Assembly (NCBI GenBank): GCA_038200085.1
Contig: JBBPYG010000104.1
Span: 1 to 43,705, forward strand
Direction: 5' to 3'
DNA from: Candidatus Limnocylindria bacterium
GTDB taxonomy: Bacteria; Chloroflexota; Limnocylindria; P2-11E
DNA: 43,705 nt
Shown here: one piece after another, positions 21,578 to 34,141 of the stretch
Numbering within the stretch: position 1 is the stretch's first letter
Layout: every line of letters starts with the position of its first letter
Notes under the pieces: model-generated
Seen by the model: the letters and a program-made list of their open reading frames with translations, nothing else
What the model was told of the DNA's origin: nothing
Database searches by the model: none
Program-made: the position numbers and the translations under genes

Positions 21578-22483
21578 GTGACCGAGCTCCGGGTCCGCGT
21601 CCCCGCCACGAGCGCGAACCTCGGCCCCGGCTTCGACTCGTTCGGGGTCGCCCTGCCCCTCCTAGCCGAGTTCGCGCTCCGCGCCGCGCGCACCTGGAGC
21701 GTCACGGTCGACGGGGACGGCGACGGCATCCCGACCGGCGAGGACAACCTGTTCGTCGTCGCCGCGCGCGCTGCGGCGAAGGCCGCGCGCGGGAACCTCC
21801 CGGCACAGCACGTCATCCAGCGCTCGAGCATCCCGATCGCGCGAGGCCTCGGATCGAGCGCCGCCGCGATCGCCGGAGGAGCTGTCGCGGCCAACGCGCT
21901 GCTCGGGGACCCACTCGACCGGCGGACGGTCCTGCGCATCGCCAGTGAGGTCGAGGGGCACGCCGACAACGTCGCGGCGGCGCTCTATGGCGCCTTCACC
22001 GTCGCGCTTCCGACCGCCGATGGGCCGGTGGCGACGCGTTTCGCGTTCCCTCGAGCGTGGCGGGTCTGCGTCTTCGTGCCGAAGCGGCCGCTGTCGACGG
22101 ACAAGGCGCGCGGCGTGCTGCCGGCGCAGGTCGCCCGTGCCGACGCGGTGTTCAACCTCGCGCACGCGGCGACTCTCGTCGCCGCTCTGCTGCGGTCCGA
22201 CGGCGCCCTCCTCTCGCTCGCCATGGCCGACCGGCTGCATCAGAGCGCGCGCCTCCGGCTCGTCCCGGGCCTGGAGGAGATCGTGGGCGCGGCGCGCTCC
22301 GCCGGCGCCTTCGGTGCGGCCCTCTCGGGAGCCGGGCCCACTCTTCTCGCGGTCGCCCCCGCGCGCCTGGCCGCCCGCGTGGTCGCCGCCATGGAGGAGG
22401 CCGCCGCGACGGCCGGCGTAGCTGGCCGCGGGCGGGCGCTGCGCGTGCGCGCCGCCGGTGCGCAGGTGCGGCACGTGTCGTGA
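21578..22483 (+). CDS. thrB: Homoserine kinase
   Basis: PATSANLGPGFD, PIARGLGSSAA, EGHADN, LSGAGPT. Confidence 0.96.
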   Translation: MTELRVRVPATSANLGPGFDSFGVALPLLAEFALRAARTWSVTVDGDGDGIPTGEDNLFVVAARAAAKAARGNLPAQHVIQRSSIPIARGLGSSAAAIAGGAVAANALLGDPLDRRTVLRIASEVEGHADNVAAALYGAFTVALPTADGPVATRFAFPRAWRVCVFVPKRPLSTDKARGVLPAQVARADAVFNLAHAATLVAALLRSDGALLSLAMADRLHQSARLRLVPGLEEIVGAARSAGAFGAALSGAGPTLLAVAPARLAARVVAAMEEAAATAGVAGRGRALRVRAAGAQVRHVS

Positions 22484-22493
22484 AGGAGATACC

Positions 22494-22997
22494 GTGGACC
22501 GCGAGATGACGATGCGACCGGCGCTCGTGCTCGCCGCGACCATCCTGGCCGGCTGCGGCACCACAGGTGCGCCGATCGCCGTTGGTTCGCCGAGCGCGTC
22601 GGCGGCGACGGCGAGGCCGGCGACGCCCGCGCCGACCGCGACGCCGGCACCGACGACCGCCGCGCCGGCGACCCCGCTCGTGTCGGCGCGAGGGTCGATC
22701 ACAGTGAGCAAGCCGCTCGCGGGCGCGCGCGTGGCCTCGCCGGTCACGGTGACGGGCGACGCGAGTGTGTTCGAAGCGGCGCTGCAGTGGCGCGTCGTCG
22801 ACGCGGCGGGCGCGGTGCTGGGGCAGGGAAACGCCATGGCCTCGCAGGGGGCTCCGGGCCGGGGCACCTTCACCATCGCCGCGGCATTCACCGCGCCCGC
22901 GGCCGACACCGTCGGCGCGATCGAGGTCTTCGATCGCAGCCCGCGCGACGGCTCGATCGACGAGATCGTGCGCGTGCCCGTCACCCTGTCGAAGTAG
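22494..22997 (+). CDS. Lipoprotein with a Gmad2-like immunoglobulin domain
   Basis: RBS AAGGAG; lipobox LAGC; Pro/Thr/Ala linker; SPVTVTGDASVFEA..SPRDGS. Confidence 0.8.
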   Translation: MDREMTMRPALVLAATILAGCGTTGAPIAVGSPSASAATARPATPAPTATPAPTTAAPATPLVSARGSITVSKPLAGARVASPVTVTGDASVFEAALQWRVVDAAGAVLGQGNAMASQGAPGRGTFTIAAAFTAPAADTVGAIEVFDRSPRDGSIDEIVRVPVTLSK

Positions 22998-23039
22998 CGC
23001 ACGCCCGGCCGATCAGGCCCGCGCGCGGATAATCGACGC

Positions 23040-23816
23040 GTGCCCGATCGCCTCGCGCTCCTCGCCGAACCCGCGGTCCGCAGCGCCGTCGGCCGCGAGC
23101 TCGAGCGGGTCATCGAATACCACGCCGTCCTCGACTCGACGCAGATCCGCGCGCGCGCTCTCGCCGACGCGGGGGCGCGCGCGGCGCTCGTCGTCGCAGA
23201 GGAGCAGACGGCCGGGCGCGGGCGCCGCGGCAACGCGTGGCACGCGGCGCCCGGCACGTCGCTGCTCGCATCGTGGGTGCTCCGCCCGGCGCCCGCGCAG
23301 CCGGCGCTGGTGACGCTGCTCGCGGGGGTCGCCGTCGCGCGCGCGCTCGACGCAGCGGGCTGTCCGGGGACGTGCGTCAAGTGGCCGAACGACGTGCAGC
23401 TGGCCGGAAGGAAGATCGCCGGCGCGCTGGCGGATGCGGCCGGCGAGGGGCCAGCCGCGGCGCTCCTGCTCGGGATCGGGATCAACGTCCACCAGCGCGC
23501 GGAGGATCTCCCGGCGGACCTGTCCGCCATCGCGACGTCCTGCGCGGCGGCGGGGTATGACGTCGACCGCCTGGCGCTGCTGTGCCGGCTCGACGCCGAG
23601 CTCGTCCGCTTGGAGACGACCGCGGGTCGCGACGCCGCGATCGGGCAGTGGCGGGCGCGCTCGAGCGTGCTCGGCAGGGAAGTGGAGGTGACCGGTCCCG
23701 GCGAGGCGCTGTCGCGGGGGGTAGCCGTGGACCTCGCCGACGATGGGGCGCTCGTGGTGGAGTCGGCAGCGGGCCGCGAGCGCGTGCTGGCCGGCACGCT
23801 GAGGCTGGTCGCGTGA
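23040..23816 (+). CDS. birA: Biotin--[acetyl-CoA carboxylase] ligase without an HTH domain
   Basis: DSTQ, AEEQTAGRGRRG, KWPND, KIAG, GIGINV. Confidence 0.93.
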   Translation: MPDRLALLAEPAVRSAVGRELERVIEYHAVLDSTQIRARALADAGARAALVVAEEQTAGRGRRGNAWHAAPGTSLLASWVLRPAPAQPALVTLLAGVAVARALDAAGCPGTCVKWPNDVQLAGRKIAGALADAAGEGPAAALLLGIGINVHQRAEDLPADLSAIATSCAAAGYDVDRLALLCRLDAELVRLETTAGRDAAIGQWRARSSVLGREVEVTGPGEALSRGVAVDLADDGALVVESAAGRERVLAGTLRLVA

Positions 23817-24685
23817 GAAGCTCTCCCAGTCGCTACGCGATCGTCGTCGACGGGACGACCGCTCTCGCGCCGGAGGTCGAACGCGAGCTCGATATCCGCT
23901 GGCTCCCGCTCCACGTGAACCTCGGCCTCGATTCGTTCACCGTGGGTGTGGACCTCACGAACGAGGACTTCTACCGGAGGATCGCCGCGCCCGGCGTGCG
24001 GCCGCAGACCTCGCAGCCCTCGCTCGGGGAATGCCGCGACGTTTACGACGCGGCGGTCGGGGAAGGCGCGCGCGAGATCCTCGTCCTGACGATCGCGCGC
24101 GAGCTGTCCGGCACGCACTCCGTCGCATCGACGGCGGGAGCGCTCGTGCCGGGGGTGCGCGTCGAGGTGGTCGATACGCGCACGGCGGCGGCTTCGATCG
24201 GCTTGATAGCGGCGGCGTGCGCGCGCACCCGGCGCCAAGGCGGCACATTTTCGCAGGCCGTGGATGTCGCCCGCGCGCTCGCCGGGAGCGTCGGCATCAT
24301 CGCGCTGCTCGATACCATCGAGTACCTGAAGCGCGGCGGGCGCGCCAGCAAGGCGCAGGCGCTGTTCGGTTCGCTTCTCGCGGTCAAGCCGATCATCGAG
24401 GTGCGCGAGGGGGACGTGCACGCGGTGGATCGTGTCCGCACGCGCGACCGCGCGTTCTCCCGCTTGAAGGAGCTGATCGAGGCGCGCATCCCGGCCGGCG
24501 CACGCATCCACGCGGCGACGCAGTACACCCACGATCCCGCACCCGCCCGCCTTCTCGGCGAGTGGCTCCAGTCCCGTTTCCATTGCGTGGAGCACTGGAC
24601 CGCGGAGGGCGGGCCGGTCCTCGCGACGCACACGGGACCCGGCGCGGTCGGGCTCAGCTGGTACGAGGAGCGCGCTGCCGCATGA
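23813..24685 (+). CDS. DegV/FakB family fatty-acid-binding protein
   Basis: IVVDGT, TSQPS, LSGT, LKRGGR, VKPI, THTGPG. Confidence 0.92.
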   Translation: MRSSPSRYAIVVDGTTALAPEVERELDIRWLPLHVNLGLDSFTVGVDLTNEDFYRRIAAPGVRPQTSQPSLGECRDVYDAAVGEGAREILVLTIARELSGTHSVASTAGALVPGVRVEVVDTRTAAASIGLIAAACARTRRQGGTFSQAVDVARALAGSVGIIALLDTIEYLKRGGRASKAQALFGSLLAVKPIIEVREGDVHAVDRVRTRDRAFSRLKELIEARIPAGARIHAATQYTHDPAPARLLGEWLQSRFHCVEHWTAEGGPVLATHTGPGAVGLSWYEERAAA

Positions 24686-25533
24686 GGCTCCGGATGCCGT
24701 TCGGGAGGCAGCGCCGCGATTTCCCCAGCCACCTGTGGACGCAGTGCCCGAGTTGCGGCGAGATGCTCTTCAACAAGCAGCTCGCCCGTAACCTCGGCGT
24801 GTGCACGAACTGCGAGCACCACTTCAAGCTCGGCGCGCGCGAACGCATCGAGCTCCTCGTCGACAAGGGAAGCTTCGAGGAGCACGACCGGGACCTCGTC
24901 TCCGCGGATCCTCTCGGGTTCGTAGATCAGAAGCCGTATCCCGCGCGGGTGCTCGCCGCGCAGACGAAGACCGGCGAGAAGGACGCGGTCATCTGCGGGA
25001 ACGCGACGATCGCGCAGATCCCGGTCGTGCTCGCCGTGATGGACTTCGACTTCATGGGCGGCTCGATGGGCAGCGTCGTCGGCGAGAAGCTCGCGCGCGC
25101 GGTCGAGCGGGCGCTGGTGGAGCGGCGATCCGTCGTCATCGTGTCGGCCTCCGGCGGCGCGCGAATGCAGGAAGGCACAGTCGCGCTCATGCAGATGGCG
25201 AAGGTCGTTGGGGCGCTCGCGCGCCTCGATGACGCGGGCTTGGCTTACATCAGCGTCCTCACTGATCCGACCACCGGCGGCGTCCTCGCGTCCTTCGCCT
25301 CGCTCGGAGACCTCGTGCTCGCCGAGCCTGACGCGCTCATCGGCTTTTCCGGCGCCCGCGTGACCGACCAGACGATCGGCGAGCGCCTGCCGAAGGGCTT
25401 CCAACGCTCCGAGTTCCTCCTCGAGCGGGGGTTCATCGACCAGGTCGTACCCCGCGCGCAACTGCGCGACCGGCTCGCATTCTTCCTCGGCGCGCTGCGC
25501 CCGGACGCGGGCGACATGCGCTGGAGCCTCTAG
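24682..25533 (+). CDS. accD: Acetyl-CoA carboxylase carboxyltransferase beta subunit
   Basis: LWTQCPSC..CTNC zinc ribbon, FMGGSMGSVVGE, SGGARMQEG, PTTGGV. Confidence 0.97.
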   Translation: MRLRMPFGRQRRDFPSHLWTQCPSCGEMLFNKQLARNLGVCTNCEHHFKLGARERIELLVDKGSFEEHDRDLVSADPLGFVDQKPYPARVLAAQTKTGEKDAVICGNATIAQIPVVLAVMDFDFMGGSMGSVVGEKLARAVERALVERRSVVIVSASGGARMQEGTVALMQMAKVVGALARLDDAGLAYISVLTDPTTGGVLASFASLGDLVLAEPDALIGFSGARVTDQTIGERLPKGFQRSEFLLERGFIDQVVPRAQLRDRLAFFLGALRPDAGDMRWSL

Positions 25534-25535
25534 CG

Positions 25536-26489
25536 ATGCTCGACCGCTTCGTCGGACGGAAGCCGCCGGACGGCAATGGCCACGTCCCGGCGAGCGCCGA
25601 CCTCATCGTCACCGCCGACGCGATAGCGGGAGACCGGGCGAGCGCGTGGCAGGCGGTCCAGCTCGCGCGGGAGCTGAAGCGTCCGCATGCGCTCGACTTC
25701 ATGAGCCGCGTCTTCGACCGCTTCAGCGAGATCCACGGGGACCGCCTGTTCCGCGACGACCCCGCGATCGTCGGCGCGATCGCCGAGCTCGACGGGCGCG
25801 CCGTGATGGTCGTGGCCCAGCAGAAGGGGGCATCGACCGAGGAGAACATCGTCCGCAATTTCGGCATGCCGTATCCGGAGGGGTACCGCAAGGCGGCGCG
25901 TCTGTATCGGATGGCGGAGAAGTTCCACCTGCCGCTCGTGACGTTCGTCGACACCCCGGGCGCGTACCCCGGTCCCGAGGCGGAGGAGCGCGGCCAGGCG
26001 GAGGCGATCGCTCGCGCGATCGCGGCGTTAATCCGCCTGTCGACGCCGGTCGTCGCGGTCATCCTCGGAGAGGGCGGCTCCGGAGGCGCGCTGGCCCTCG
26101 CCGTTGGAGACGTCGTGCTGGCACTGCAGAACGCGATCTATTCGGTAATTTCGCCGGAGGGTTGCGCCGCGATCCTGTGGCGAAGTTCGTCCGAGGCAGA
26201 GCGCGCCGCCGGCGCGCTGAAGCTCGCGGCTCCCGACCTGCTCGAGCTCGGGATCGTCGACGCGCTCGTCCCCGAGCCCGTCGGCGGTGCCCATACCGAC
26301 CACGACGCGGCAGCGGCGAGCGTGAAGGCCGCGCTGCGCTCGGAGCTCGAACGGTTGGGTCGCATCCCGATCGCGGACCTGGTCTCCGCCCGCTACGAGC
26401 GCTTCCGCTCGATCGGCGTCGTCAACGAGCCCGAGCCGCCCACTCCCGCCGTTCCGGTGCGGCCGTGGTGGAAGCGCGTGGTGCCGTGA
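25536..26489 (+). CDS. accA: Acetyl-CoA carboxylase carboxyltransferase alpha subunit
   Basis: HGDR, RNFGMP.PEGYRKA, DTPGAYPG, GEGGSGGAL, YSVISPEGCAAILW. Confidence 0.97.
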   Translation: MLDRFVGRKPPDGNGHVPASADLIVTADAIAGDRASAWQAVQLARELKRPHALDFMSRVFDRFSEIHGDRLFRDDPAIVGAIAELDGRAVMVVAQQKGASTEENIVRNFGMPYPEGYRKAARLYRMAEKFHLPLVTFVDTPGAYPGPEAEERGQAEAIARAIAALIRLSTPVVAVILGEGGSGGALALAVGDVVLALQNAIYSVISPEGCAAILWRSSSEAERAAGALKLAAPDLLELGIVDALVPEPVGGAHTDHDAAAASVKAALRSELERLGRIPIADLVSARYERFRSIGVVNEPEPPTPAVPVRPWWKRVVP

Positions 26490-26887
26490 CGGACGGCGAT
26501 CGCGCGCTCGACCTTCTCGATAACCTGCTCGAGCTCGCCCGTGGGTCGGCGATCGCCGAGATCGAGGTCGAGCACGATGGAACGACGGTGTCGCTTCTGC
26601 GGACGCCGCTGCCCGCCGTCCCCGCCGCGCGCGCGGTCGCCGAGGAGGCCACGTCCGCGCCGGCCGCGCACACTGTGCAGGCACCGACCGTCGGGATCTT
26701 CAGCGCGGTGCGCGAGTGGGCCGTCGGAGACGCCGTCCAGCGCGGCGCCCCGCTCGGCGCGATCCAGTCACTGGGTCACATGGCCGAGATCAGCGCTCCG
26801 TCCGAAGGCGTGATCGCCGAGGTGCTGGTGACCGGCGGATCGCCGGTCGAGTACGGGCAGGCGCTCTTCGTCATCGCAGCGGCGTGA
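26486..26887 (+). CDS. BCCP-like protein lacking the biotin-acceptor lysine
   Basis: GTGA overlap with accA. BCCP layout (IAEIEVE N-terminus, Ala/Pro linker, APTVGIF, GSPVEYGQALF), but IQSLGH where EAMK is expected; no Lys in the protein. Confidence 0.85.
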   Translation: MTDGDRALDLLDNLLELARGSAIAEIEVEHDGTTVSLLRTPLPAVPAARAVAEEATSAPAAHTVQAPTVGIFSAVREWAVGDAVQRGAPLGAIQSLGHMAEISAPSEGVIAEVLVTGGSPVEYGQALFVIAAA

Positions 26888-26930
26888 AGGCGCAGCGCTC
26901 CACGTCTCGTCGCTCCACCGGAGCGGCCGC

Positions 26931-27860
26931 GTGATGGAGCGGGATCGAGCGCTGTGGATGTTCCCTGGACAGGGGGCACAGCAGGCCGGAATGGGCCGCG
27001 AGCTCGCCGACGCTCATCCCGCCGCCCGCGAAGTCTTCGACCGTGCGAACGAGGCGCTTGGCTTCGACGTGCGCGCGCTGTGCTTCGAAGGCCCGCAGAG
27101 CGAGCTCGACAGCACGCAGAACGCCCAGCCTGCGCTCCTCGCCACCTCGATCGCGGCACTCGCGGCCGCGCGCGCGGCCGGGATGCCCGAGGGCGACCCG
27201 ATCGTCATGGGCCACTCGCTCGGCGAGTTCTCGGCCCTGGTCGCCGCCGGTACGCTCGAGTTCGGCGACGCGCTGCGCCTCGTCCGTCGCCGCGGCGAGC
27301 TCATGCAGGCGGCCGACGACACCGGCGGGATGGCCGCGGTGCTGGGGCTCGACGCGGCAGCGGTCGAGCGCGCCATCGACGGCACCGGTCTCGTCATCGC
27401 AAATGACAACGCCCCTGGGCAGATCGTGGTCTCGGGTCCCACGGCCGCGCTGGCCGCCGCCGGCGGCGCGCTCCGGCACGCCGGCGCGAGGCGGGTCGTC
27501 GCGCTGCGCGTCTCCGGGGCGTTCCATTCGCCGGCGATGCGCCCGGTCGCCGCGGAGCTCGCGAGGGCGATCGCCTCGATCCCGATCGGGGAGCTGCGGC
27601 ATCCCGTGATCACCAATGTCGACGCGCATGTGCACGAGCACGCCGCCGACCTGCCGGCGCTGCTCGAGCGCCAGGTGTGGTCTCCGGTACGATGGGCCGA
27701 CGCCGTGCGGCGCGCGCGGGAGGAGGGTGCCTCGATCTTCGTTGAGTTCGGGCCGGGCGCCACTCTCACCGGCCTCGTGAAGCGCATCCTTCCGGATGTC
27801 CAGACCCTGAACGTTTCCAGCTCCGCGACGCTGGAGGAGGCGCTGGCTGTCCTTCGATAA
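26931..27860 (+). CDS. fabD: Malonyl-CoA:ACP transacylase
   Basis: FPGQGAQ, AQPAL, GHSLGEF, VSGAFHS, SPVRW, EFGPG. Confidence 0.96.
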   Translation: MMERDRALWMFPGQGAQQAGMGRELADAHPAAREVFDRANEALGFDVRALCFEGPQSELDSTQNAQPALLATSIAALAAARAAGMPEGDPIVMGHSLGEFSALVAAGTLEFGDALRLVRRRGELMQAADDTGGMAAVLGLDAAAVERAIDGTGLVIANDNAPGQIVVSGPTAALAAAGGALRHAGARRVVALRVSGAFHSPAMRPVAAELARAIASIPIGELRHPVITNVDAHVHEHAADLPALLERQVWSPVRWADAVRRAREEGASIFVEFGPGATLTGLVKRILPDVQTLNVSSSATLEEALAVLR

Positions 27861-29205
27861 GGTCCTCATCGCGAACCGCGGCGAGATCGCCCTGCGCGTC
27901 GTGCGCGCGTGCCGCGAGCTGGGCATCCAGACGGTCGTCGTGTACAGCGAGGCCGACGCGCACAGCCTTCCGGTGCATCTGGCGGACGAGGCGATCTGCA
28001 TCGGCCCCGCGAACAGCCGCGACTCCTACCTCAACATCCCCGCGGTCATATCCGCCGCCCTCATATCGGGCGCGCAGGCGATCCACCCCGGCTACGGCTT
28101 CCTGTCCGAGAACGCCGACTTCTCGGAGGTGTGCAAGGAGCACGGCCTCGTGTTCATCGGACCCCCGCCCGAGGTCCTCGCGCGGTTCCACGACAAGGCC
28201 GCGACGCGTGCCGCGATGAAGCGGAGCGGCATGCCGGTGATCCCCGGATCCGAGGGCCCCGTCCGCAGCGCCTCCGAGGCGCTGCGCATCGCCGAGGCCA
28301 TCGGCTACCCCGTCATGCTGAAGGCGCGGGCCGGCGGCGGCGGCCGGGGGATGCGCAAGGCGGAGTCCGCGCGCGACGTCCAGCGCATGTGGGACCAGGC
28401 CCGCAGCGAGGCGAAGGCCAGCTTCGGCGACGACGGCATATACCTCGAGCGCTGCCTCGAGGGCGTGCGCCACGTCGAGGCCCAGGTCCTCGTGGACGAC
28501 CGGGGCAGCGGCATCTGCCTCGGCGAGCGCGAGTGCTCGATCCAGCGGCGCAACCAGAAGATGCTCGAGGAGGCACCGTCGGCCTCGATCAGCGAAGAAC
28601 TACGGCTCGCGATCCAGCGCGCCGCCGTCGATGCGGCCGTGCGATTCGGCTATCGCAACGTCGGTACGTTCGAGTTCCTCGTGGACTCCGCCGGCGACTT
28701 CTACTTCATCGAGGTGAACGCCCGCATCCAGGTGGAGCACACCGTGACCGAAATGGTCACCGGGGTCGACCTCGTGAAGGAGCAGATCGCGCTCGCGAGC
28801 GGTGAGCCGCTGTCGTTGTCAGAGGAACAGATCTGGGTGAAGGGCCACGCCGTCGAGTGCCGCATCAACGCCGAGGACTCGACCGCCGACTTCGCGCCTT
28901 CATCCGGCGTGCTCACCACCTTCCTTCCGCCGGGCGGGCCCGGGATACGCATCGACTCGCATTGCTTCCAGGGCTACGAGGTCCCGCCGTACTACGACTC
29001 GCTGCTCGGGAAGGTCGTCGCCTGGGGCCGCGACCGCTCCGAGTCCATCGCGCGGATGCAGCGGGCGCTCGACGAATTCACCATCGTCGGCGTGACGACG
29101 AACATCGACGCGCACAAGAAGATCCTCGCGAGCGAGCTGTTCCGCAGCGGGCGGGTGACGACCCACCTCATCGATACCGTGGGCATCGAGGCGCTCGCTG
29201 GCTGA
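27847..29205 (+). CDS. accC: Biotin carboxylase, probably starting at CTG
   Basis: FDKVLIANRGEIA lies upstream of the first canonical start (27901); HPGYGFLSEN, GGGGRGM, ERECSIQRR, EVNARIQVEH, YYDSL. Confidence 0.95.
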   Translation: MSFDKVLIANRGEIALRVVRACRELGIQTVVVYSEADAHSLPVHLADEAICIGPANSRDSYLNIPAVISAALISGAQAIHPGYGFLSENADFSEVCKEHGLVFIGPPPEVLARFHDKAATRAAMKRSGMPVIPGSEGPVRSASEALRIAEAIGYPVMLKARAGGGGRGMRKAESARDVQRMWDQARSEAKASFGDDGIYLERCLEGVRHVEAQVLVDDRGSGICLGERECSIQRRNQKMLEEAPSASISEELRLAIQRAAVDAAVRFGYRNVGTFEFLVDSAGDFYFIEVNARIQVEHTVTEMVTGVDLVKEQIALASGEPLSLSEEQIWVKGHAVECRINAEDSTADFAPSSGVLTTFLPPGGPGIRIDSHCFQGYEVPPYYDSLLGKVVAWGRDRSESIARMQRALDEFTIVGVTTNIDAHKKILASELFRSGRVTTHLIDTVGIEALAG

Positions 29206-29635
29206 GCTCGACCGGGCCGGGATCGAGGCGCTGATCCCGCATCGCGATCCGTTCCTCCTCATCGACAGGATCACCGCTCTCGAGCCGGGCGTGCGAGCCG
29301 TGGCGGAGCACACCTTCACCGGCGAGGAGTGGTACCTGGCGGGGCACTTCCCCGGGAATCCCATCGTGCCGGGGGTGATCCTCACGGAGTCGATGGCGCA
29401 GACGTGCGCGGCCTGCGCGATGGCGCACCCCGACTTCACGGGAGGCCTCGGTCTCTTCGCGGGCATCGACGCGATGCGCTTTCGCCGCATCGTGCGCCCC
29501 GGCGATACGGCGCGCTTCGAGATCGAGATGGAGAAGCTGCGCCGAGCGTTCGGCCGCGCGAAGGTACGGACGCTCGTGGGCGACGAGGTCGCCGCTGAAG
29601 GCTCCATCAGCTTCGTCCTCCAGAAGCCGGCATGA
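29198..29635 (+). CDS. fabZ: 3-hydroxyacyl-ACP dehydratase, probably starting at CTG
   Basis: IPHRDPFLLIDRI lies upstream of the first canonical start (29291); GHFPGNPIVPGVILTESMAQ, FRRIVRPGD. Confidence 0.93.
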   Translation: MAELDRAGIEALIPHRDPFLLIDRITALEPGVRAVAEHTFTGEEWYLAGHFPGNPIVPGVILTESMAQTCAACAMAHPDFTGGLGLFAGIDAMRFRRIVRPGDTARFEIEMEKLRRAFGRAKVRTLVGDEVAAEGSISFVLQKPA

Positions 29636-30564
29636 AGGCCGTCGAGATCGTCGGCGTGCCCATGGATCTCGGCGGGAACCGCCGGGGAGTGGACATGGGC
29701 CCCTCGGCCGTCCGTTACGCGGGCCTCGTTGACCGCCTGGTCGCGCTCGGATTCACCGTCGCCGACCGCGGCAACCTGCGGGTCGCTGATCCGGCGGAGG
29801 GCCTGCGGGTCGCGCAGATGCGGCGCTTCGACGCCGCTCGAGACCACCCTGCCCGGCGCCGCGGAGCGCATTTCGCCGAGGAGATCGTTCGCGTAGCGGG
29901 GGAGCTCGCCAGCGCGGTCGAGGAGATCGAGCGCTCCGGCGCCATCCCTCTCGTGCTTGGCGGCGACCACTCCATCGCGATGGGAACGCTCGCCGGAGTG
30001 TGCCGTGCTGGCAGGCGGCCCGGTGTCGTCTACCTCGACGCGCACGGGGACATCAACACACCGGAGTCGTCGCCTTCGGGCAACGTGCACGGCATGCCGC
30101 TGGCAGTCGCGCTCGGCATCGCCGGTGAGCCCTTCCCGGAAGCGCTGCGCGGCTCGATCGACGGCCGCGCCACTGCCCTCGTCGCCATCCGCGACCTCGA
30201 TCCTGCGGAGCGTCAGCACATCGCTGACACGAACATCACCGCGGTGACCATGGCCGACATCGACCGGGCCGGGATGGCCGCCGCCATGGAGCGAGCGATC
30301 GCGGCGGCGGGGAACGGCGACGGCATCCATCTTTCGCTCGACATGGACGCGCTCGACCCCGATGAGGCCCCGGGCGTGGGAACTCCGGTGAAGGGCGGGC
30401 TCACCTACCGCGAGGCGCAGCTCGCGATGGAGATGCTCGCCGCCAGCGGGGAGCTGCGCTCGATCGAGCTCGCGGAAGTGAACCCGATCCTCGACACAGC
30501 GAATCGCACCGCGATGCTCGGGGTCGAGCTCGTCGCGAGCGCTCTGGGGCAGACGATCCTTTAA
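29632..30564 (+). CDS. rocF: Arginase
   Basis: RRGVDMGPS, GGDHS, DAHGD, SPSGNVHGM, SLDMDALDP..APGVGTP, EVNP. Confidence 0.93.
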   Translation: MKAVEIVGVPMDLGGNRRGVDMGPSAVRYAGLVDRLVALGFTVADRGNLRVADPAEGLRVAQMRRFDAARDHPARRRGAHFAEEIVRVAGELASAVEEIERSGAIPLVLGGDHSIAMGTLAGVCRAGRRPGVVYLDAHGDINTPESSPSGNVHGMPLAVALGIAGEPFPEALRGSIDGRATALVAIRDLDPAERQHIADTNITAVTMADIDRAGMAAAMERAIAAAGNGDGIHLSLDMDALDPDEAPGVGTPVKGGLTYREAQLAMEMLAASGELRSIELAEVNPILDTANRTAMLGVELVASALGQTIL

Positions 30565-30587
30565 CGAACCGCTTCCCGCCGTTCGGA

Positions 30588-30700
30588 GCGCGCTGCCGCG
30601 CGATGCGATCGCCGTCGGGCGATGCGAGCGCCGTCGCGCACTCCATAGCCGTCGCGCGCTCCGAGCGCTGCCGCACGATCCGAGCGCCGTCGCGCGCTCT
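30588..30700. repeat. Degenerate ~19-bp tandem repeat x6 in the rocF-fabF intergenic region
   Basis: Units at 30588, 30607, 30626, 30645 (18 bp), 30663 and 30682; consensus approximately GAGCGCYGYCGCRCGMTCC. Confidence 0.75.
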
Positions 30701-30848
30701 CCGGCATCGCCACGTCTGTCTGACCGGTGCCGCGCTCAAGTCAGGCAGAGCGCCAGCACGCCTCGTCACCGAAGAGCACGTCGGAGGCCGTACGCACTCG
30801 GCCGCGGGCCGTCTAGGCCGACGTGCCCTCGGTACACTCGACCGCACG

Positions 30849-32105
30849 ATGAACAATGGCGAAAGGCGCCGCGTCGTCGTGACGGGCATCGGCATGATCA
30901 CCCCGCTCGGTTCCAGCGTCGAGAAGTCGTGGGCAGGCCTGCTGTCGGGGCGCAGCGGGATCGGACCGATCACTCGGTTCGATGCGAGCGCGCTCGAGAC
31001 CCGGATCGCGGGTGAGGTCCACGACTTCGATCCCCTTGACTACATGGACCGCAAGCAGGCCCGGCGCACCGACCGCTTCGCGCAGTTCGCCGTCGCGACC
31101 GCGGGGCAGGCGCTGCACGACGCCGGTCTTGAGATCACGGCCGACCTCGCGCCGCGCATCGGCGTCGCATTCGGCTCGGGCATCGGCGGCGTCGAGACGC
31201 TCGTTGACAATATCGTCGCTCACGAGCGCGATCCGCGCCGAGTGTCCGCGTTCATGATCCCGATGATGATCGTCGACATGGCCGCGGGCGAGATCGCCAT
31301 GAAGTACGGTGCGAAGGGACCGAACATGGCGCAGGTCTCGGCCTGCGCGTCGAGCGCGCACGCGGTCGGAGAGGCCACCGAGACGATCCGGCGAGGTCAG
31401 GCCGACGTCATGCTGGCCGGCGGATCGGAAGCCGGGGTGATCAAGGTCGCGATCGGCGCGTTCAACTCGATGCACGCGCTCTCCCGGCGGAACGATGCGC
31501 CCGAGCGGGCGTCGCGCCCCTTCGATCGGGAGCGGGACGGGTTCGTCTTCAGCGAGGCCGGCGCCTGCCTGGTTCTCGAGGAGCTCGAGTTCGCGCGTTC
31601 GCGCGGCGCGCGGATCCTCGGCGAGGTCTCGGGATATGGCGCGACCGCCGACGCGCACCACATCACGGCACCCCCGCCCGGGGCGGAGGGAGCGGTGCGC
31701 GCGATGCGCATGGCGCTCGCGGACGCCGACGCCGCGCCCGATGGCATCGGCTACGTCAACGCGCACGGCACGTCGACGCAGGCCAACGATGGCGCGGAGA
31801 CCGCCGCGCTGAAGGCCGTGTTCGGGGATCACGCTCGCACGCTGCCCGTGTCGTCGACGAAATCCATGACCGGCCACACCCTCGGCGCGGCGGGCGCCAT
31901 CGAAGCCGCGGTCTGCGTGCTCGCGATGCGCAGCGGCCGCCTCCCACCCACGATCAACCAGGAGTCGCCTGACCCGGAATGCGACCTCGACTACATCCCG
32001 AACGTCGCGCGCGAGGCGAGCGTGGCGGCGTCGCTTTCGAACTCCATGGGCTTCGGCGGCCACAACGTGGCGCTCGTCCTGCGCCGCTGGGACGACGGGT
32101 CGTGA
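30849..32105 (+). CDS. fabF: 3-oxoacyl-ACP synthase II
   Basis: RRVVVTGIG, SACAS (active Cys), SRPFD, NAHGTST, KSMTGH, SNSMGFGGHN. Confidence 0.96.
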   Translation: MNNGERRRVVVTGIGMITPLGSSVEKSWAGLLSGRSGIGPITRFDASALETRIAGEVHDFDPLDYMDRKQARRTDRFAQFAVATAGQALHDAGLEITADLAPRIGVAFGSGIGGVETLVDNIVAHERDPRRVSAFMIPMMIVDMAAGEIAMKYGAKGPNMAQVSACASSAHAVGEATETIRRGQADVMLAGGSEAGVIKVAIGAFNSMHALSRRNDAPERASRPFDRERDGFVFSEAGACLVLEELEFARSRGARILGEVSGYGATADAHHITAPPPGAEGAVRAMRMALADADAAPDGIGYVNAHGTSTQANDGAETAALKAVFGDHARTLPVSSTKSMTGHTLGAAGAIEAAVCVLAMRSGRLPPTINQESPDPECDLDYIPNVAREASVAASLSNSMGFGGHNVALVLRRWDDGS

Positions 32106-32575
32106 CCGAGGGCGACGTGCTGCCGCTCGTTCGCGAACTGCTCGCGCGCCTCGAAGCGGAGGACGTGCGCGAGCTGTCGGTGTCGCGGAACGGCACGCGG
32201 GTCCGCGTGCGCAAGTCGTCGGCCATGGAGGTCGCGCCCGCTCCGCTCACGAGCGCCGCGCCCGCTTCCGCATCGACGACGGCCGCGCCCGACCCGGAGC
32301 CGCGGCGGCCGATGGTGGTGTCGGCCGCGCCGTCGGCCGACGACCGCGTCGTGAGCGCACCGCTGACCGGTGTTTTCTATCGCTCCGCGTCGCCGCAGGC
32401 GCCGGCCTTCGTCGAGGAGGGCGCCGACATCGTTTCGGGTGATGTCGTCGGGCTCATCGAGGCGATGAAGCTGTTCAACGAGATCCGCTCGACGAAGAGC
32501 GGCCGCGTCCGCCGCATCGTCGCGACGAACGGACAGCTGGTCCGTGCCCACCAGCCGCTGCTGGAGCTTGAGTGA
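32102..32575 (+). CDS. accB: Biotin carboxyl carrier protein (canonical)
   Basis: APLTGVFYRSASP thumb and IEAMKLFNEI biotinylation motif (Lys codon at 32468). Confidence 0.94.
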   Translation: MTEGDVLPLVRELLARLEAEDVRELSVSRNGTRVRVRKSSAMEVAPAPLTSAAPASASTTAAPDPEPRRPMVVSAAPSADDRVVSAPLTGVFYRSASPQAPAFVEEGADIVSGDVVGLIEAMKLFNEIRSTKSGRVRRIVATNGQLVRAHQPLLELE

Positions 32576-32754
32576 GGGACCCGAAGGCAGGCGCGTGCGT
32601 CATCTGCCGGCAGCCGCTCGGTGACACCCCGCGGCGCCTGCGCTACGAGGAACGGCTGTACGCGTTCGATCGGGACGTTTGCAAGCGCATCTTCCAGGAG
32701 AATCCTGATCGCTACCTCGACGCTGCGGGTGAGGTGCTGCCCGAGCCCCGGTGA
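32572..32754 (+). CDS. Small YHS/TRASH-like metal-binding protein
   Basis: GTGA overlap with accB; CVIC..Y..R.YAF...CKRIFQENPDRY resembles YHS. Confidence 0.7.
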   Translation: MRDPKAGACVICRQPLGDTPRRLRYEERLYAFDRDVCKRIFQENPDRYLDAAGEVLPEPR

Positions 32755-32760
32755 CAGTCC

Positions 32761-32812
32761 GGGGGCTTCGCCCCCAGTGCGCCCTAATGGCCGGCGCTGC
32801 GCGCCGGCCATT
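32761..32812. terminator. Twin hairpins between convergent genes, likely terminator
   Basis: GGGGGC-TTC-GCCCCC and the 12-bp stem AATGGCCGGCGC-TGC-GCGCCGGCCATT; no clear U-tract. Confidence 0.55.
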
Positions 32813-32854
32813 GGTCACGGAGCGGCGGACTCAGACGCCAGGCGGTGTGGTGGG

Positions 32855-34141
32855 TCACAGCCCCAGTGCCGACACGATGACGAGCGCGACCGACAGGAGC
32901 GATGCCATCCCGGCGACCCCCCAGCCGACCGCGCCCGAGAACCTCCCGTTCGCCGCGTCACCCATGAGCTCGCGGTCCGACGCGAGGCGCAGGATGAATA
33001 CCAGCACGACCGGCAGCAGCACCCCGTTGACGTTCTGCGAGACGAGGATGATCGGCAGCAGCCGCTGGTCCGGCACGAGCAGCACCACGAGCCCGCCCGC
33101 GATCAGCAGGAACGTGAAGAGGCCCATGAACACCGGTGCGTCGCGGAAGTCGTGACTGATCCCCGACTCCCAGCCGAAGGCCTCGCAGATCGCGTACGAG
33201 GTGGACAGTGGCATCACCGTTGCGGCCAGCATCGACGCGCCGAAGAGGCCGAGCCCGAAGAGCAGCGCCGCCTGCTCGCCCGCGAGCGGCACGAGCGCGC
33301 GCGCGGCATCGCCGGCGGAGCGCACGTCGACGTGGGCCGGGAACAGCACGGCGCCAGCCGCCACGATGATGAAGAAGCCGTTCAGCCCGGTCAGCACCGC
33401 TCCCAGGAGCACGTCGAGCCGGGCGAACTGGTACGCCTCCCGGTCTATTCCCTTGTCGACGATCGACGCCTGTATGTAGAACTGCATGTACGGCGTGATC
33501 GTCGTACCCACGAGCGCCAGCGCCGCGATGAGCGCGGCCTGCTCGGCAGGCAGCGCGGGTACCACGAGGCCGCCGAGGACGCCGCTCCACGACGGATGGA
33601 CGATGAGGGCCGTGATCGGATACGCCACGAAGGCGAGGATCAGCACGAAGAGCGCGCGCTCCACGATCCGGTACGTGAACAGCACCACGAGCGCCCAGAC
33701 CGCCACCGCCGCGAAGGGGACCGACACGAAGCGCGGTATGTGGAGCAGCTCGAGGCTCGCGGCGACGCCGGCGAACTCGGCCACGACGTTGCTCCCGTTC
33801 GCGACCAAGAGCGCGAGCATCGCGACGATCGTCCAGCGCACGCCGAAGCGCTCCCGGATCAGGTCCGACAACCCCTTTCCCGTGACCGCTCCCATGCGCG
33901 CGCACATCTCCTGCACGACGAGCAGGCCCGCCGTGGACAGCAGCAGGAGCCAAAGAAGCGAGAAGCCGTAACTCGCGCCCACCGCGGTGTACGTCGCGAC
34001 GCCGCCCGCATCGTTTCCGGCGAAGCCGGTGATCACGCCGGGACCCATGACCGCGAGGAACGCGAGGAGCGACGCGCGCCGCGGGATCGCTCGCCGCCGC
34101 ATGGTCCGGAGCGAGCGCCGGAGGGAGCGGCGGCCGATCAT
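32855..34141 (-). CDS. NRAMP-related divalent metal (probably Mg2+) transporter
   Basis: MGPG...GNDAGG (not DPGN), QEMCARMG.VTGKGL, GTTITPY; lies next to an MgtE-domain gene. Confidence 0.9.
   Translation of the reverse strand: MIGRRSLRRSLRTMRRRAIPRRASLLAFLAVMGPGVITGFAGNDAGGVATYTAVGASYGFSLLWLLLLSTAGLLVVQEMCARMGAVTGKGLSDLIRERFGVRWTIVAMLALLVANGSNVVAEFAGVAASLELLHIPRFVSVPFAAVAVWALVVLFTYRIVERALFVLILAFVAYPITALIVHPSWSGVLGGLVVPALPAEQAALIAALALVGTTITPYMQFYIQASIVDKGIDREAYQFARLDVLLGAVLTGLNGFFIIVAAGAVLFPAHVDVRSAGDAARALVPLAGEQAALLFGLGLFGASMLAATVMPLSTSYAICEAFGWESGISHDFRDAPVFMGLFTFLLIAGGLVVLLVPDQRLLPIILVSQNVNGVLLPVVLVFILRLASDRELMGDAANGRFSGAVGWGVAGMASLLSVALVIVSALGL

Follow-up and report, generated by a model that had tools for sequence, protein, structure and literature searches.

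A lysine-free BCCP paralogue in the acetyl-CoA carboxylase gene cluster of a Limnocylindria bacterium as a possible bacterial counterpart of plant BADC proteins

Introduction

Non-biotinylatable relatives of the biotin carboxyl carrier protein (BCCP) are treated, in PMC11926652, as a plant peculiarity. There and in PMC12706156 the BADC proteins are described as BCCP homologues that lack the AMKL motif, occur beside BCCP and are thought to bind biotin carboxylase (BC) and BCCP, acting either as a 'glue' or as a brake; the former source calls them 'unique to the plant htACCase'. Here we examine a 43,705-nucleotide stretch of DNA from a Candidatus Limnocylindria bacterium (Chloroflexota; Limnocylindria; P2-11E; GenBank assembly GCA_038200085.1, contig JBBPYG010000104.1, positions 1 to 43,705 of the forward strand), hereafter the window, in which a 133-residue BCCP-like protein is encoded directly after accA. 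This protein, for which we use the name X, has a glycine at the site of the biotinylated lysine, and the same gene cluster for acetyl-CoA carboxylase (ACC) and fatty-acid synthesis encodes a second, lysine-bearing AccB.

ACC carries out the committed step of fatty-acid synthesis and is both an antibiotic and herbicide target and a model of multi-subunit assembly. We found no description of bacterial BCCP paralogues lacking the lysine in the full-text literature searched, in which candidate passages of PMC11077971 and PMC3459881 turned out not to bear on the matter; an earlier mention outside that literature, for example in supplements, is possible.

Results

Anatomy of X and its biotinyl site

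The open reading frame of X runs from a GTG start at 26486 to a TGA stop at 26885-26887, 133 codons with the frame intact, and its start overlaps the stop codon of accA (TGA, 26487-26489). Its modules were delimited by alignment and with an AlphaFold2 (AF2) model, read through the predicted local distance difference test (pLDDT), and their constraint was measured as the ratio of non-synonymous to synonymous substitution rates (dN/dS).

26486-26887, + strand: X, lysine-free BCCP paralogue (open reading frame, Pfam Biotin_lipoyl, AF2 model)
26486-26489, + strand: GTGA overlap of the X start codon GTG with the accA stop codon TGA (read from the sequence)
26486-26605, + strand: N-terminal alpha/beta/beta motif, residues 1-40 (AF2, alignment, dN/dS 0.19)
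26606-26671, + strand: Pro/Ala-rich flexible linker, residues 41-62 (pLDDT below 50 at residues 43-51, variable in alignments)
26672-26884, + strand: biotinyl-domain fold with no acceptor lysine and a short thumb, residues 63-133 (AF2, Foldseek)
26774-26776, + strand: Gly97 codon ggt at the biotinyl-lysine position, within the IQSLGH hairpin (alignments)

In Pfam, residues 63-130 match Biotin_lipoyl (E 2.5e-10). When X is compared by BLASTP with the window's own AccB, IQSLGHMAEI falls opposite IEAMKLFNEI, and a phmmer search of solved structures sets 'slgh' of X opposite 'amkm' of Escherichia coli BCCP (4HR7_B), with a 6-residue gap at the thumb region of X; the thumb is likewise 6 residues shorter than that of the window's AccB. 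Since the biotinyl-lysine is replaced by glycine and the thumb is shortened, X should be unable to accept biotin or to carry CO2. On these alignments X is a BCCP paralogue predicted to be dead as a carrier, with all three BCCP modules kept. Measured against what defines a functional BCCP, it lacks the biotinyl-lysine and the full thumb and scores 51.3 bits with TIGR00531, the NCBIfam model for BCCP, against a cut-off of 115.2 (the window's AccB reaches 109.8), and it retains the biotinyl-domain fold, the N-terminal alpha/beta/beta module and the Pro/Ala-rich linker. No NCBIfam model was found that sets such lysine-less proteins apart, and annotation sources label them 'acetyl-CoA carboxylase biotin carboxyl carrier protein'.

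An initial annotation of this locus, made from the sequence alone, had already claimed the coupling to accA, the full BCCP layout, the glycine codon at 26774, the absence of any lysine, the shortened thumb, an intact reading frame ending in VEYGQ.LF and a canonical accB 5.6 kb downstream. Each of these readings holds: the C terminus reads PVEYGQALFVI, accB starts at 32102, and none of the 133 residues is a lysine. The last of these is weak evidence when taken alone, because lysine makes up 1.8% of the 11 neighbouring proteins in a window of 71% G+C, so that a protein of this length would have none with a probability of about 0.09. The weight rests instead on the loss of lysine at the specific site, and on the conservation of that loss.

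The AF2 model, built from a 50-row alignment, has a mean pLDDT of 82.5. It comprises an N-terminal module with a helix at residues 4-19 and strands at 25-30 and 33-38 (pLDDT 65-75), a disordered linker and a C-terminal domain at pLDDT 97-98. The best Foldseek match in the Protein Data Bank (PDB) is 1BDO, the biotinyl domain of E. coli BCCP, with a root-mean-square deviation of 1.9 Å over 75 columns and 32% identity, and is followed by Pyrococcus horikoshii BCCP, Arabidopsis BCCP1 and 4HR7 (4HR7_G). The N-terminal module aligns weakly with residues 26-78 of E. coli BCCP in phmmer. Its predicted alpha/beta/beta arrangement fits the account, in a preprint about the tube formed by E. coli ACC (PMC11160672), of the first 30 residues of BCCP as an alpha/beta/beta unit modelled as an oligomerising barrel at the centre of the tube.

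Conservation and selection within the class

A database search returned 385 homologues of X at E <= 1e-3 among 575 candidates, and the best 120 of these, at 54-97% identity, were examined. All 120 have glycine in the biotinyl-lysine column, and the hairpin reads SLGH in 119 and SLGQ in the remaining one. No other conserved lysine column is present among the 121 sequences (X and its best 120 homologues); the commonest, with lysine in 85 of 121, lies within the linker and is alanine in X. An alternative acceptor lysine or other conserved modifiable residue was ruled out on this basis. Across 17 diverse homologues the invariant positions are the hairpin IQSLGH, residues L8, L10, D12, I26, E27 and V28, and the C-terminal PVEYGQ.LF. 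His98 is invariant within the order only, and is Val or Ile in the other families of the class.

We then compared 40 related genomes with that of the window (G000). The tallies over class genomes, including those for bioB and BioY below, count one unpublished genome, G007, on which no other claim depends. Strong matches to X (E <= 1.8e-27) were found in 25 of 26 relatives of the same order, the exception being G019 (91% complete), whose best match is part of another carboxylase, and the gene directly follows accA in all eight same-order loci that were read. The 14 genomes from the other three families of the class gave weak matches only, yet every one of them carries a lysine-less BCCP-like gene between accA and fabD/accC, with a hairpin of the form V/M-D/E-L/V/M-L-G-V/I. 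An AccB linked to fabF and bearing IEAMKLFNEIK was read in 13 of these 14; in the last the contig ended first. The expectation of the initial annotation that orthologues would share the lysine loss, with none keeping the MK pair, and that a true lysine-bearing AccB would coexist with X is thus borne out.

No relative's match contains an internal stop codon. By the Nei-Gojobori method, applied to the window's genome and its congener G001, dN/dS is 0.185 for X, compared with 0.184 for fabD, 0.351 for accB, 0.093 for accA and 0.037 for accC, so that selection on X is not relaxed, again as had been foreseen. Within X the ratio is 0.057 for the C-terminal domain, 0.19 for the N-terminal module and 0.35 for the linker. 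The 'dead' carrier domain is therefore the most constrained part of the protein and is under purifying selection.

These data bear directly on whether a duplicated accB has left X behind as a decaying or functionless remnant. Such an origin would account for the loss of the lysine and of part of the thumb, both of which are needed for carrying, and for a score far under the BCCP cut-off. Against it stand a reading frame that is intact in every relative read, the low dN/dS overall and in the C-terminal domain, the near-invariance of the SLGH hairpin and the retention of a lysine-less gene in 15 or more groups of family level within the phylum. A pseudogene was ruled out by the conservation, the frame and the dN/dS, and we give the remnant explanation next to no credence.

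Phylogenetic placement

Trees were computed with FastTree (164 rows) and as a quick IQ-TREE run (89 rows by 147 columns, the hairpin columns having been removed). Both come from short alignments and are weakly resolved, but they agree on the groupings, and the figures given here are from IQ-TREE. AccB proteins of the kind encoded by the window's accB, which we call type-2, form one starred set of 28 rows with a support of 96 in the SH-like approximate likelihood-ratio test (SH-aLRT), next to the canonical lysine-bearing BCCPs; of its rows, 15 belong to the class, and Ktedonobacter, other Chloroflexota, Armatimonadota and one actinomycete metagenome-assembled genome (MAG) contribute the other 13. 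X proteins of the window's order form a set of 9 rows (support 100) and those of the other families of the class one of 12 rows (support 98). The two sets lie in an unresolved comb with other lysine-less groups. The tree needs two changes to account for the X genes of the class, but its starred branches force only one. A single origin of these genes is therefore possible, and the place that they share in the cluster favours it.

Gene cluster and the true carrier

X lies in a tightly packed cluster on one strand in the order birA-degV-accD-accA-X-fabD-accC-fabZ-arginase-fabF-accB-YHS.

23040-23816, + strand: birA, group-I biotin protein ligase, 258 residues (Pfam BPL_LplA_LipB and BPL_C)
ending at 24685, + strand: degV (Pfam and reading of the junction)
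24682-25533, + strand: accD, carboxyltransferase beta (Pfam Carboxyl_trans; zinc-finger residues located)
25536-26489, + strand: accA, carboxyltransferase alpha (Pfam ACCA, 7.6e-118)
26931-27860, + strand: fabD, malonyl-CoA:acyl carrier protein (ACP) transacylase (Pfam Acyl_transf_1, 2e-49)
27847-29205, start approximate, + strand: accC, biotin carboxylase (Pfam Biotin_carb_N, CPSase_L_D2 and Biotin_carb_C)
29291-29635, + strand: fabZ (Pfam)
29632-30564, + strand: arginase-family gene (Pfam, 1.9e-70)
30849-32105, + strand: fabF, ketoacyl-ACP synthase II (Pfam ketoacyl-synt N and C domains)
32102-32575, + strand: accB, the true carrier with thumb and IEAMKLFNEI (TIGR00531, 109.8 bits)
32572-32754, + strand: YHS-domain gene, 60 residues (Pfam)

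The probable start of accD is the ATG at 24682, in an ATGA overlap (24682-24685) with the stop codon of degV (analyses of accD were run on 24784-25533), and accB starts in a GTGA overlap (32102-32105) with the stop codon of fabF. Together with the accA-X junction, these 4-nt overlaps point to a single long operon that extends from degV to accB and is translationally coupled. As read from the overlaps, X and accB are each translationally coupled to the upstream neighbour, and both are in one cluster. The initial annotation had assigned the pseudo-subunit to a unit with accD, accA and accC and the true accB to another with fabF; the adjacency of accB and fabF stands, and the separation into two units does not. 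A consensus scan of 22400-33200 gave no promoter-like site (0.5 expected) and two terminator-like sites (2.0 expected by chance), which makes it uninformative, and a look-up of RNA runs for 25536-27860 listed none.

Within 27811-27960, accC has no ATG, GTG or TTG where its conserved N terminus (SFDKVLIANRGEIA) begins, which explains why the list of open reading frames gives a start truncated to the GTG at 27901. The CTG at 27847, in a 14-nt overlap with the end of fabD, is the sole plausible in-frame start and the likely one. The arginase-family gene separates fabZ from fabF here and directly follows fabZ in all eight same-order relatives read; where fabF is on the stretch read, its position ranges from directly after the arginase-family gene (G001) to several kb downstream. 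The YHS-domain gene overlaps the stop codon of accB and is kept after accB in G001, G006 and G013. Elsewhere in the genome, contig C109 carries, on the minus strand (L002, 939-2617), a second biotin carboxylase followed by its own 152-residue lysine-bearing carrier (EAMKMENEL), so that besides X the genome has two predicted carboxylase systems.

The position of birA at the head of the cluster, here and in class relatives, raises the question whether X has kept a regulatory role of BCCP instead of a place in the enzyme. It might use its N-terminal domain to autoregulate expression of the acc/fab cluster, or might bind PII or, as a pseudo-substrate, BirA. E. coli BCCP uses its N-terminal part to repress transcription of accBC, and BCCP is bound by PII. 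That interaction is also mentioned in PMC12706156 and PMC5080355, and the N-terminal motif of X is conserved. The strongest constraint, however, falls on the C-terminal domain and not on the N terminus, Pfam finds no DNA-binding domain in the BirA encoded here, the hairpin residues used for recognition by the ligase are replaced, and no DNA- or RNA-binding feature was found in X. We regard a regulatory role as improbable.

Distribution beyond the class

A family profile searched against 1.84 billion representative sequences gave 9674 matches at E <= 1e-3. In the best 150 of these the residue at the lysine site is Lys in 66, Gly in 44, Arg in 18, Asn in 7, Ser in 6, Thr in 3 and Ala, Cys, Met, Gln and Asp in one each, the site being uncovered in one further match; the 83 without lysine are to be read in the light of a profile built from lysine-less sequences, which biases the ranking towards such forms. 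Among named records, 21 of 80 loci are lysine-less. In Armatimonadota and actinomycete MAGs the lysine-less gene lies just upstream of accC, its neighbours in the cultured Ktedonobacter robiniae and one more Chloroflexota MAG are efp on one side and xseA/xseB on the other, and further examples come from Eremiobacterota/Vulcanimicrobiota and one Chloroflexia MAG. Four of the five lysine-less-bearing genomes searched whole contain a second, thumbed, lysine-bearing BCCP; its gene comes after fabF in two cases, Ktedonobacter and a further Chloroflexota MAG.

For a view of the phylum we sampled 61 Chloroflexota genomes, with at least 90% completeness requested and the window's own genome (66%) included. 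A TIGR00531 match at E <= 1e-10 was obtained in 44 of them, and sequences were read for 40 genomes; type-2 AccB was assigned by eye from the C-terminal motif, the thumb and adjacency to fabF, not from the lysine, and related genomes are not independent. A lysine-bearing type-2 AccB is paired with a lysine-less PVEYGQ-type paralogue in 18 of the 61 (10 family codes), in 16 of which the type-2 gene is adjacent to fabF, and the lysine is replaced in these pairs by R, N, D, Q, H, G, A or M. Where a single canonical BCCP is present (9 genomes, 4 family codes), the lysine is kept in all nine. The type-2 gene alone passed E <= 1e-10 in three further Chloroflexota and in five sampled genomes of the class, and those five are known carriers of X. 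Of ten Armatimonadota genomes, five keep the lysine in the accC-adjacent paralogue and five have arginine there; a thumbed type-2 BCCP was read in nine of the ten, including four of the five lysine-keepers, and the tenth (G048, a lysine-keeper) has a 121-bit BCCP match whose sequence is unread. Two of the Armatimonadota loci also contain a small gene between the accB-like gene and accC (L033, 6436-6807; L037, 6505-6963) with a prepilin-like hydrophobic N terminus, and with no Pfam match in L033.

Judged from these genomes, the lysine-less BCCP pattern is class-wide, is present in several phyla and is not special to the source organism, for which alone the initial annotation had suggested a two-BCCP ACC. 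A locus search with family A2 returned mostly canonical BCCPs, the best at 41% identity, and did not recover the source organisms of A2.

A search for longer, fused forms (profile A1; 8000 candidates scored) gave 32 matches, all bacterial, among which no X-type domain is fused to AccC, AccA or AccD: 26 are lysine-bearing proteins of the OadA/pyruvate-carboxylase-B type and six are lysine-less and fused to HPPK. The latter, of 296-307 residues (P0305, P0309, P0310 and P0313-P0315; loci L146, L155 and L158), join HPPK, an enzyme of folate synthesis, to a lysine-less BCCP-like C terminus with IEALGIRTPV. These fusions are putative and may be artefacts of gene calling; hairpins resembling IEALGIRTPV, also without lysine, occur in Eremiobacterota MAGs.

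A further idea is that X serves another complex, either a second carboxylase or an unrelated barrel-sandwich machine, and that its place among the acc genes is historical. The biotin carboxylase with a small lysine-bearing carrier on contig C109, the two Chloroflexota loci where a lysine-less gene lies beside efp and xseA/xseB, and the six HPPK-fused forms speak for it. The second carboxylase, however, is already provided with a carrier, X retains an N-terminal module of the ACC type that is missing from short carriers, and throughout the class as well as in Armatimonadota accA and X, or X and accC, have stayed adjacent. We consider this idea even less probable than a regulatory role.

A predicted complex with AccC

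Structure prediction for AccC with X, each with its own alignment as input, gave a score of 0.53 (runs of 0.53, 0.50 and 0.57), against 0.00 for the best of three controls, with contacts agreeing to at least 43% between runs and a partner pLDDT of at least 70. In calibration, 58 of 80 solved complexes attained the mark, as did 2 of 110 mismatched pairs, and the range at or below 0.60 holds only 7 of the 80 solved complexes and both of the passing mismatches.

Binding of this kind would also serve a competitive decoy, a brake of the kind first proposed for plant BADC, in which X binds AccC where holo-AccB otherwise would and ACC activity falls as the level of X rises. The anatomy of X is the same in either case, and a BCCP without lysine could fill carrier sites without turnover; the prediction is weakly supportive here too, if it is more than a memory of 4HR7, and inhibitor and 'glue' models are both argued for BADC according to PMC11926652. 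Against a brake, the 4-nt overlaps pack X among genes for catalytic subunits, which favours fixed co-expression, the scan of the cluster gave no separate promoter or terminator signal, and a pure inhibitor kept phylum-wide without evident separate regulation is less economical. A brake thus seems unlikely, though less so than the regulatory and other-complex proposals above, and we judge a constitutive 'glue' role likelier than a conditional brake from the packing of the gene with those of the catalytic subunits and from its very long retention.

Biotin supply

In none of 41 class genomes, of which 27 have a completeness of 90% or more, did we find bioB (TIGR00433), whereas BioY, a component of biotin transport, was found in 22 of the 41. 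In the sampled Chloroflexota bioB is above the cut-off in 2 of 61 genomes, and in none of the nine with a single BCCP. Scavenging of biotin may thus be usual in this phylum. Among 15 other genomes with two BCCPs, one has bioB. A dead carrier might then fill structural places without spending scavenged biotin. As bioB is nearly absent from single- and two-BCCP genomes alike, there is no contrast to draw upon, and this biotin-sparing idea is neither supported nor excluded.

Discussion

The fold of X, its loss of lysine, the purifying selection upon it, its synteny, its coexistence with a true AccB and its wide distribution are all directly supported, and from them we propose that X is probably a carrier-dead, non-catalytic subunit of ACC that works like plant BADC. 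Biotin would be carried by the second, thumbed, lysine-bearing AccB, translationally coupled to fabF in the same cluster. Within the AccC/AccB subcomplex X would occupy sites of the BCCP type, by way of its N-terminal motif and of the docking of its C-terminal domain on AccC, and would either hold the complex together or set the number of live carriers in it, the role proposed for plant BADC. The decoy or scaffold function suggested by the initial annotation is upheld in its evolutionary predictions, while we infer its functional half, for which the AccC-X score of 0.53 is weak support.

Several observations weigh against this proposal. Binding of X to AccC or AccB, and any effect on activity, is inferred. 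The predicted complex argues weakly for binding to AccC, and since complexes of BC with BCCP have been solved (4HR7) the pass may reflect likeness or memory only; the prediction moreover covered AccC and X alone, although X is translationally coupled to accA. The copies between efp and xseA/xseB have no acc gene beside them, so that their link to ACC is by homology alone. In Armatimonadota the lysine can be kept beside a type-2 BCCP, and coexistence therefore does not always mean loss. The residue at the lysine site is not the same from one family to the next (G, R, N, Q, D, H, A, M or T), nor are its neighbours, and the thumb varies in length, being full in Ktedonobacter and shortened in X; with hairpin and thumb both variable, no single conserved docking surface is evident.

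A wider proposal is possible, though we hold it more doubtfully. Carrier-dead BCCPs could be an old and obligatory non-catalytic subunit of heteromeric ACC throughout Chloroflexota, as well as in Armatimonadota, Eremiobacterota and some Actinomycetota, that arose by division of labour. The second, usually fabF-linked AccB would have taken over carrying, after which the ancestral AccB, linked to accC or efp, would have lost its lysine and stayed essential for assembly.

If X does act in this way, BCCP has a selectable role that is independent of biotin, and on the wider proposal the architecture of a BCCP plus a dead BCCP, thought to be confined to plastids, would be a recurrent and perhaps older bacterial solution. 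A conserved bacterial counterpart whose carriers include at least one species in culture (Ktedonobacter robiniae) would make the question of glue or brake that surrounds BADC testable in a simple system. A more practical consequence concerns annotation as BCCP, which overstates the capability of lysine-less proteins and hides the gene of the real carrier.

How X relates to described proteins can be set out in turn. With canonical AccB (E. coli 1BDO and 4HR7; TIGR00531) it shares the three-module layout, the fold, the PVEYGQ-type C terminus and the acc neighbourhood, and it differs in the glycine that replaces the biotinyl-lysine, in the 6-residue shorter thumb and in scoring well under the model's cut-off. 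Type-2 AccB, found in Chloroflexota, Armatimonadota and some actinomycete MAGs, is a paralogue of X, encoded here in the same cluster, with a common N-terminal motif, linker and biotinyl domain. Unlike X it keeps the thumb and the motif E(A/T)MK(L/V)F, ends in G.LV..G.PL rather than PVEYGQ and is predicted to be a live carrier. AccE, the epsilon subunit of actinobacterial acyl-CoA carboxylases, is to our knowledge not a BCCP homologue, and it acts on BC-BCCP fusion enzymes and not on a four-subunit ACC. X is proposed to resemble it as a small non-catalytic subunit that aids assembly or activation, and AccE is cited as a bacterial 'glue' precedent in PMC11926652.

The closest functional analogue of X is the group of BADC or BCCP-like proteins of plants, represented by BADC1-3 in the plastid heteromeric ACC of Arabidopsis. 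Both are BCCP homologues without the biotinylation motif, and both coexist with a true BCCP, which are the two likenesses found at the level of sequence. In contrast to BADC, X is bacterial and is encoded inside an acc/fab cluster, and the likeness that we draw is one of functional class and not a claim of common descent.

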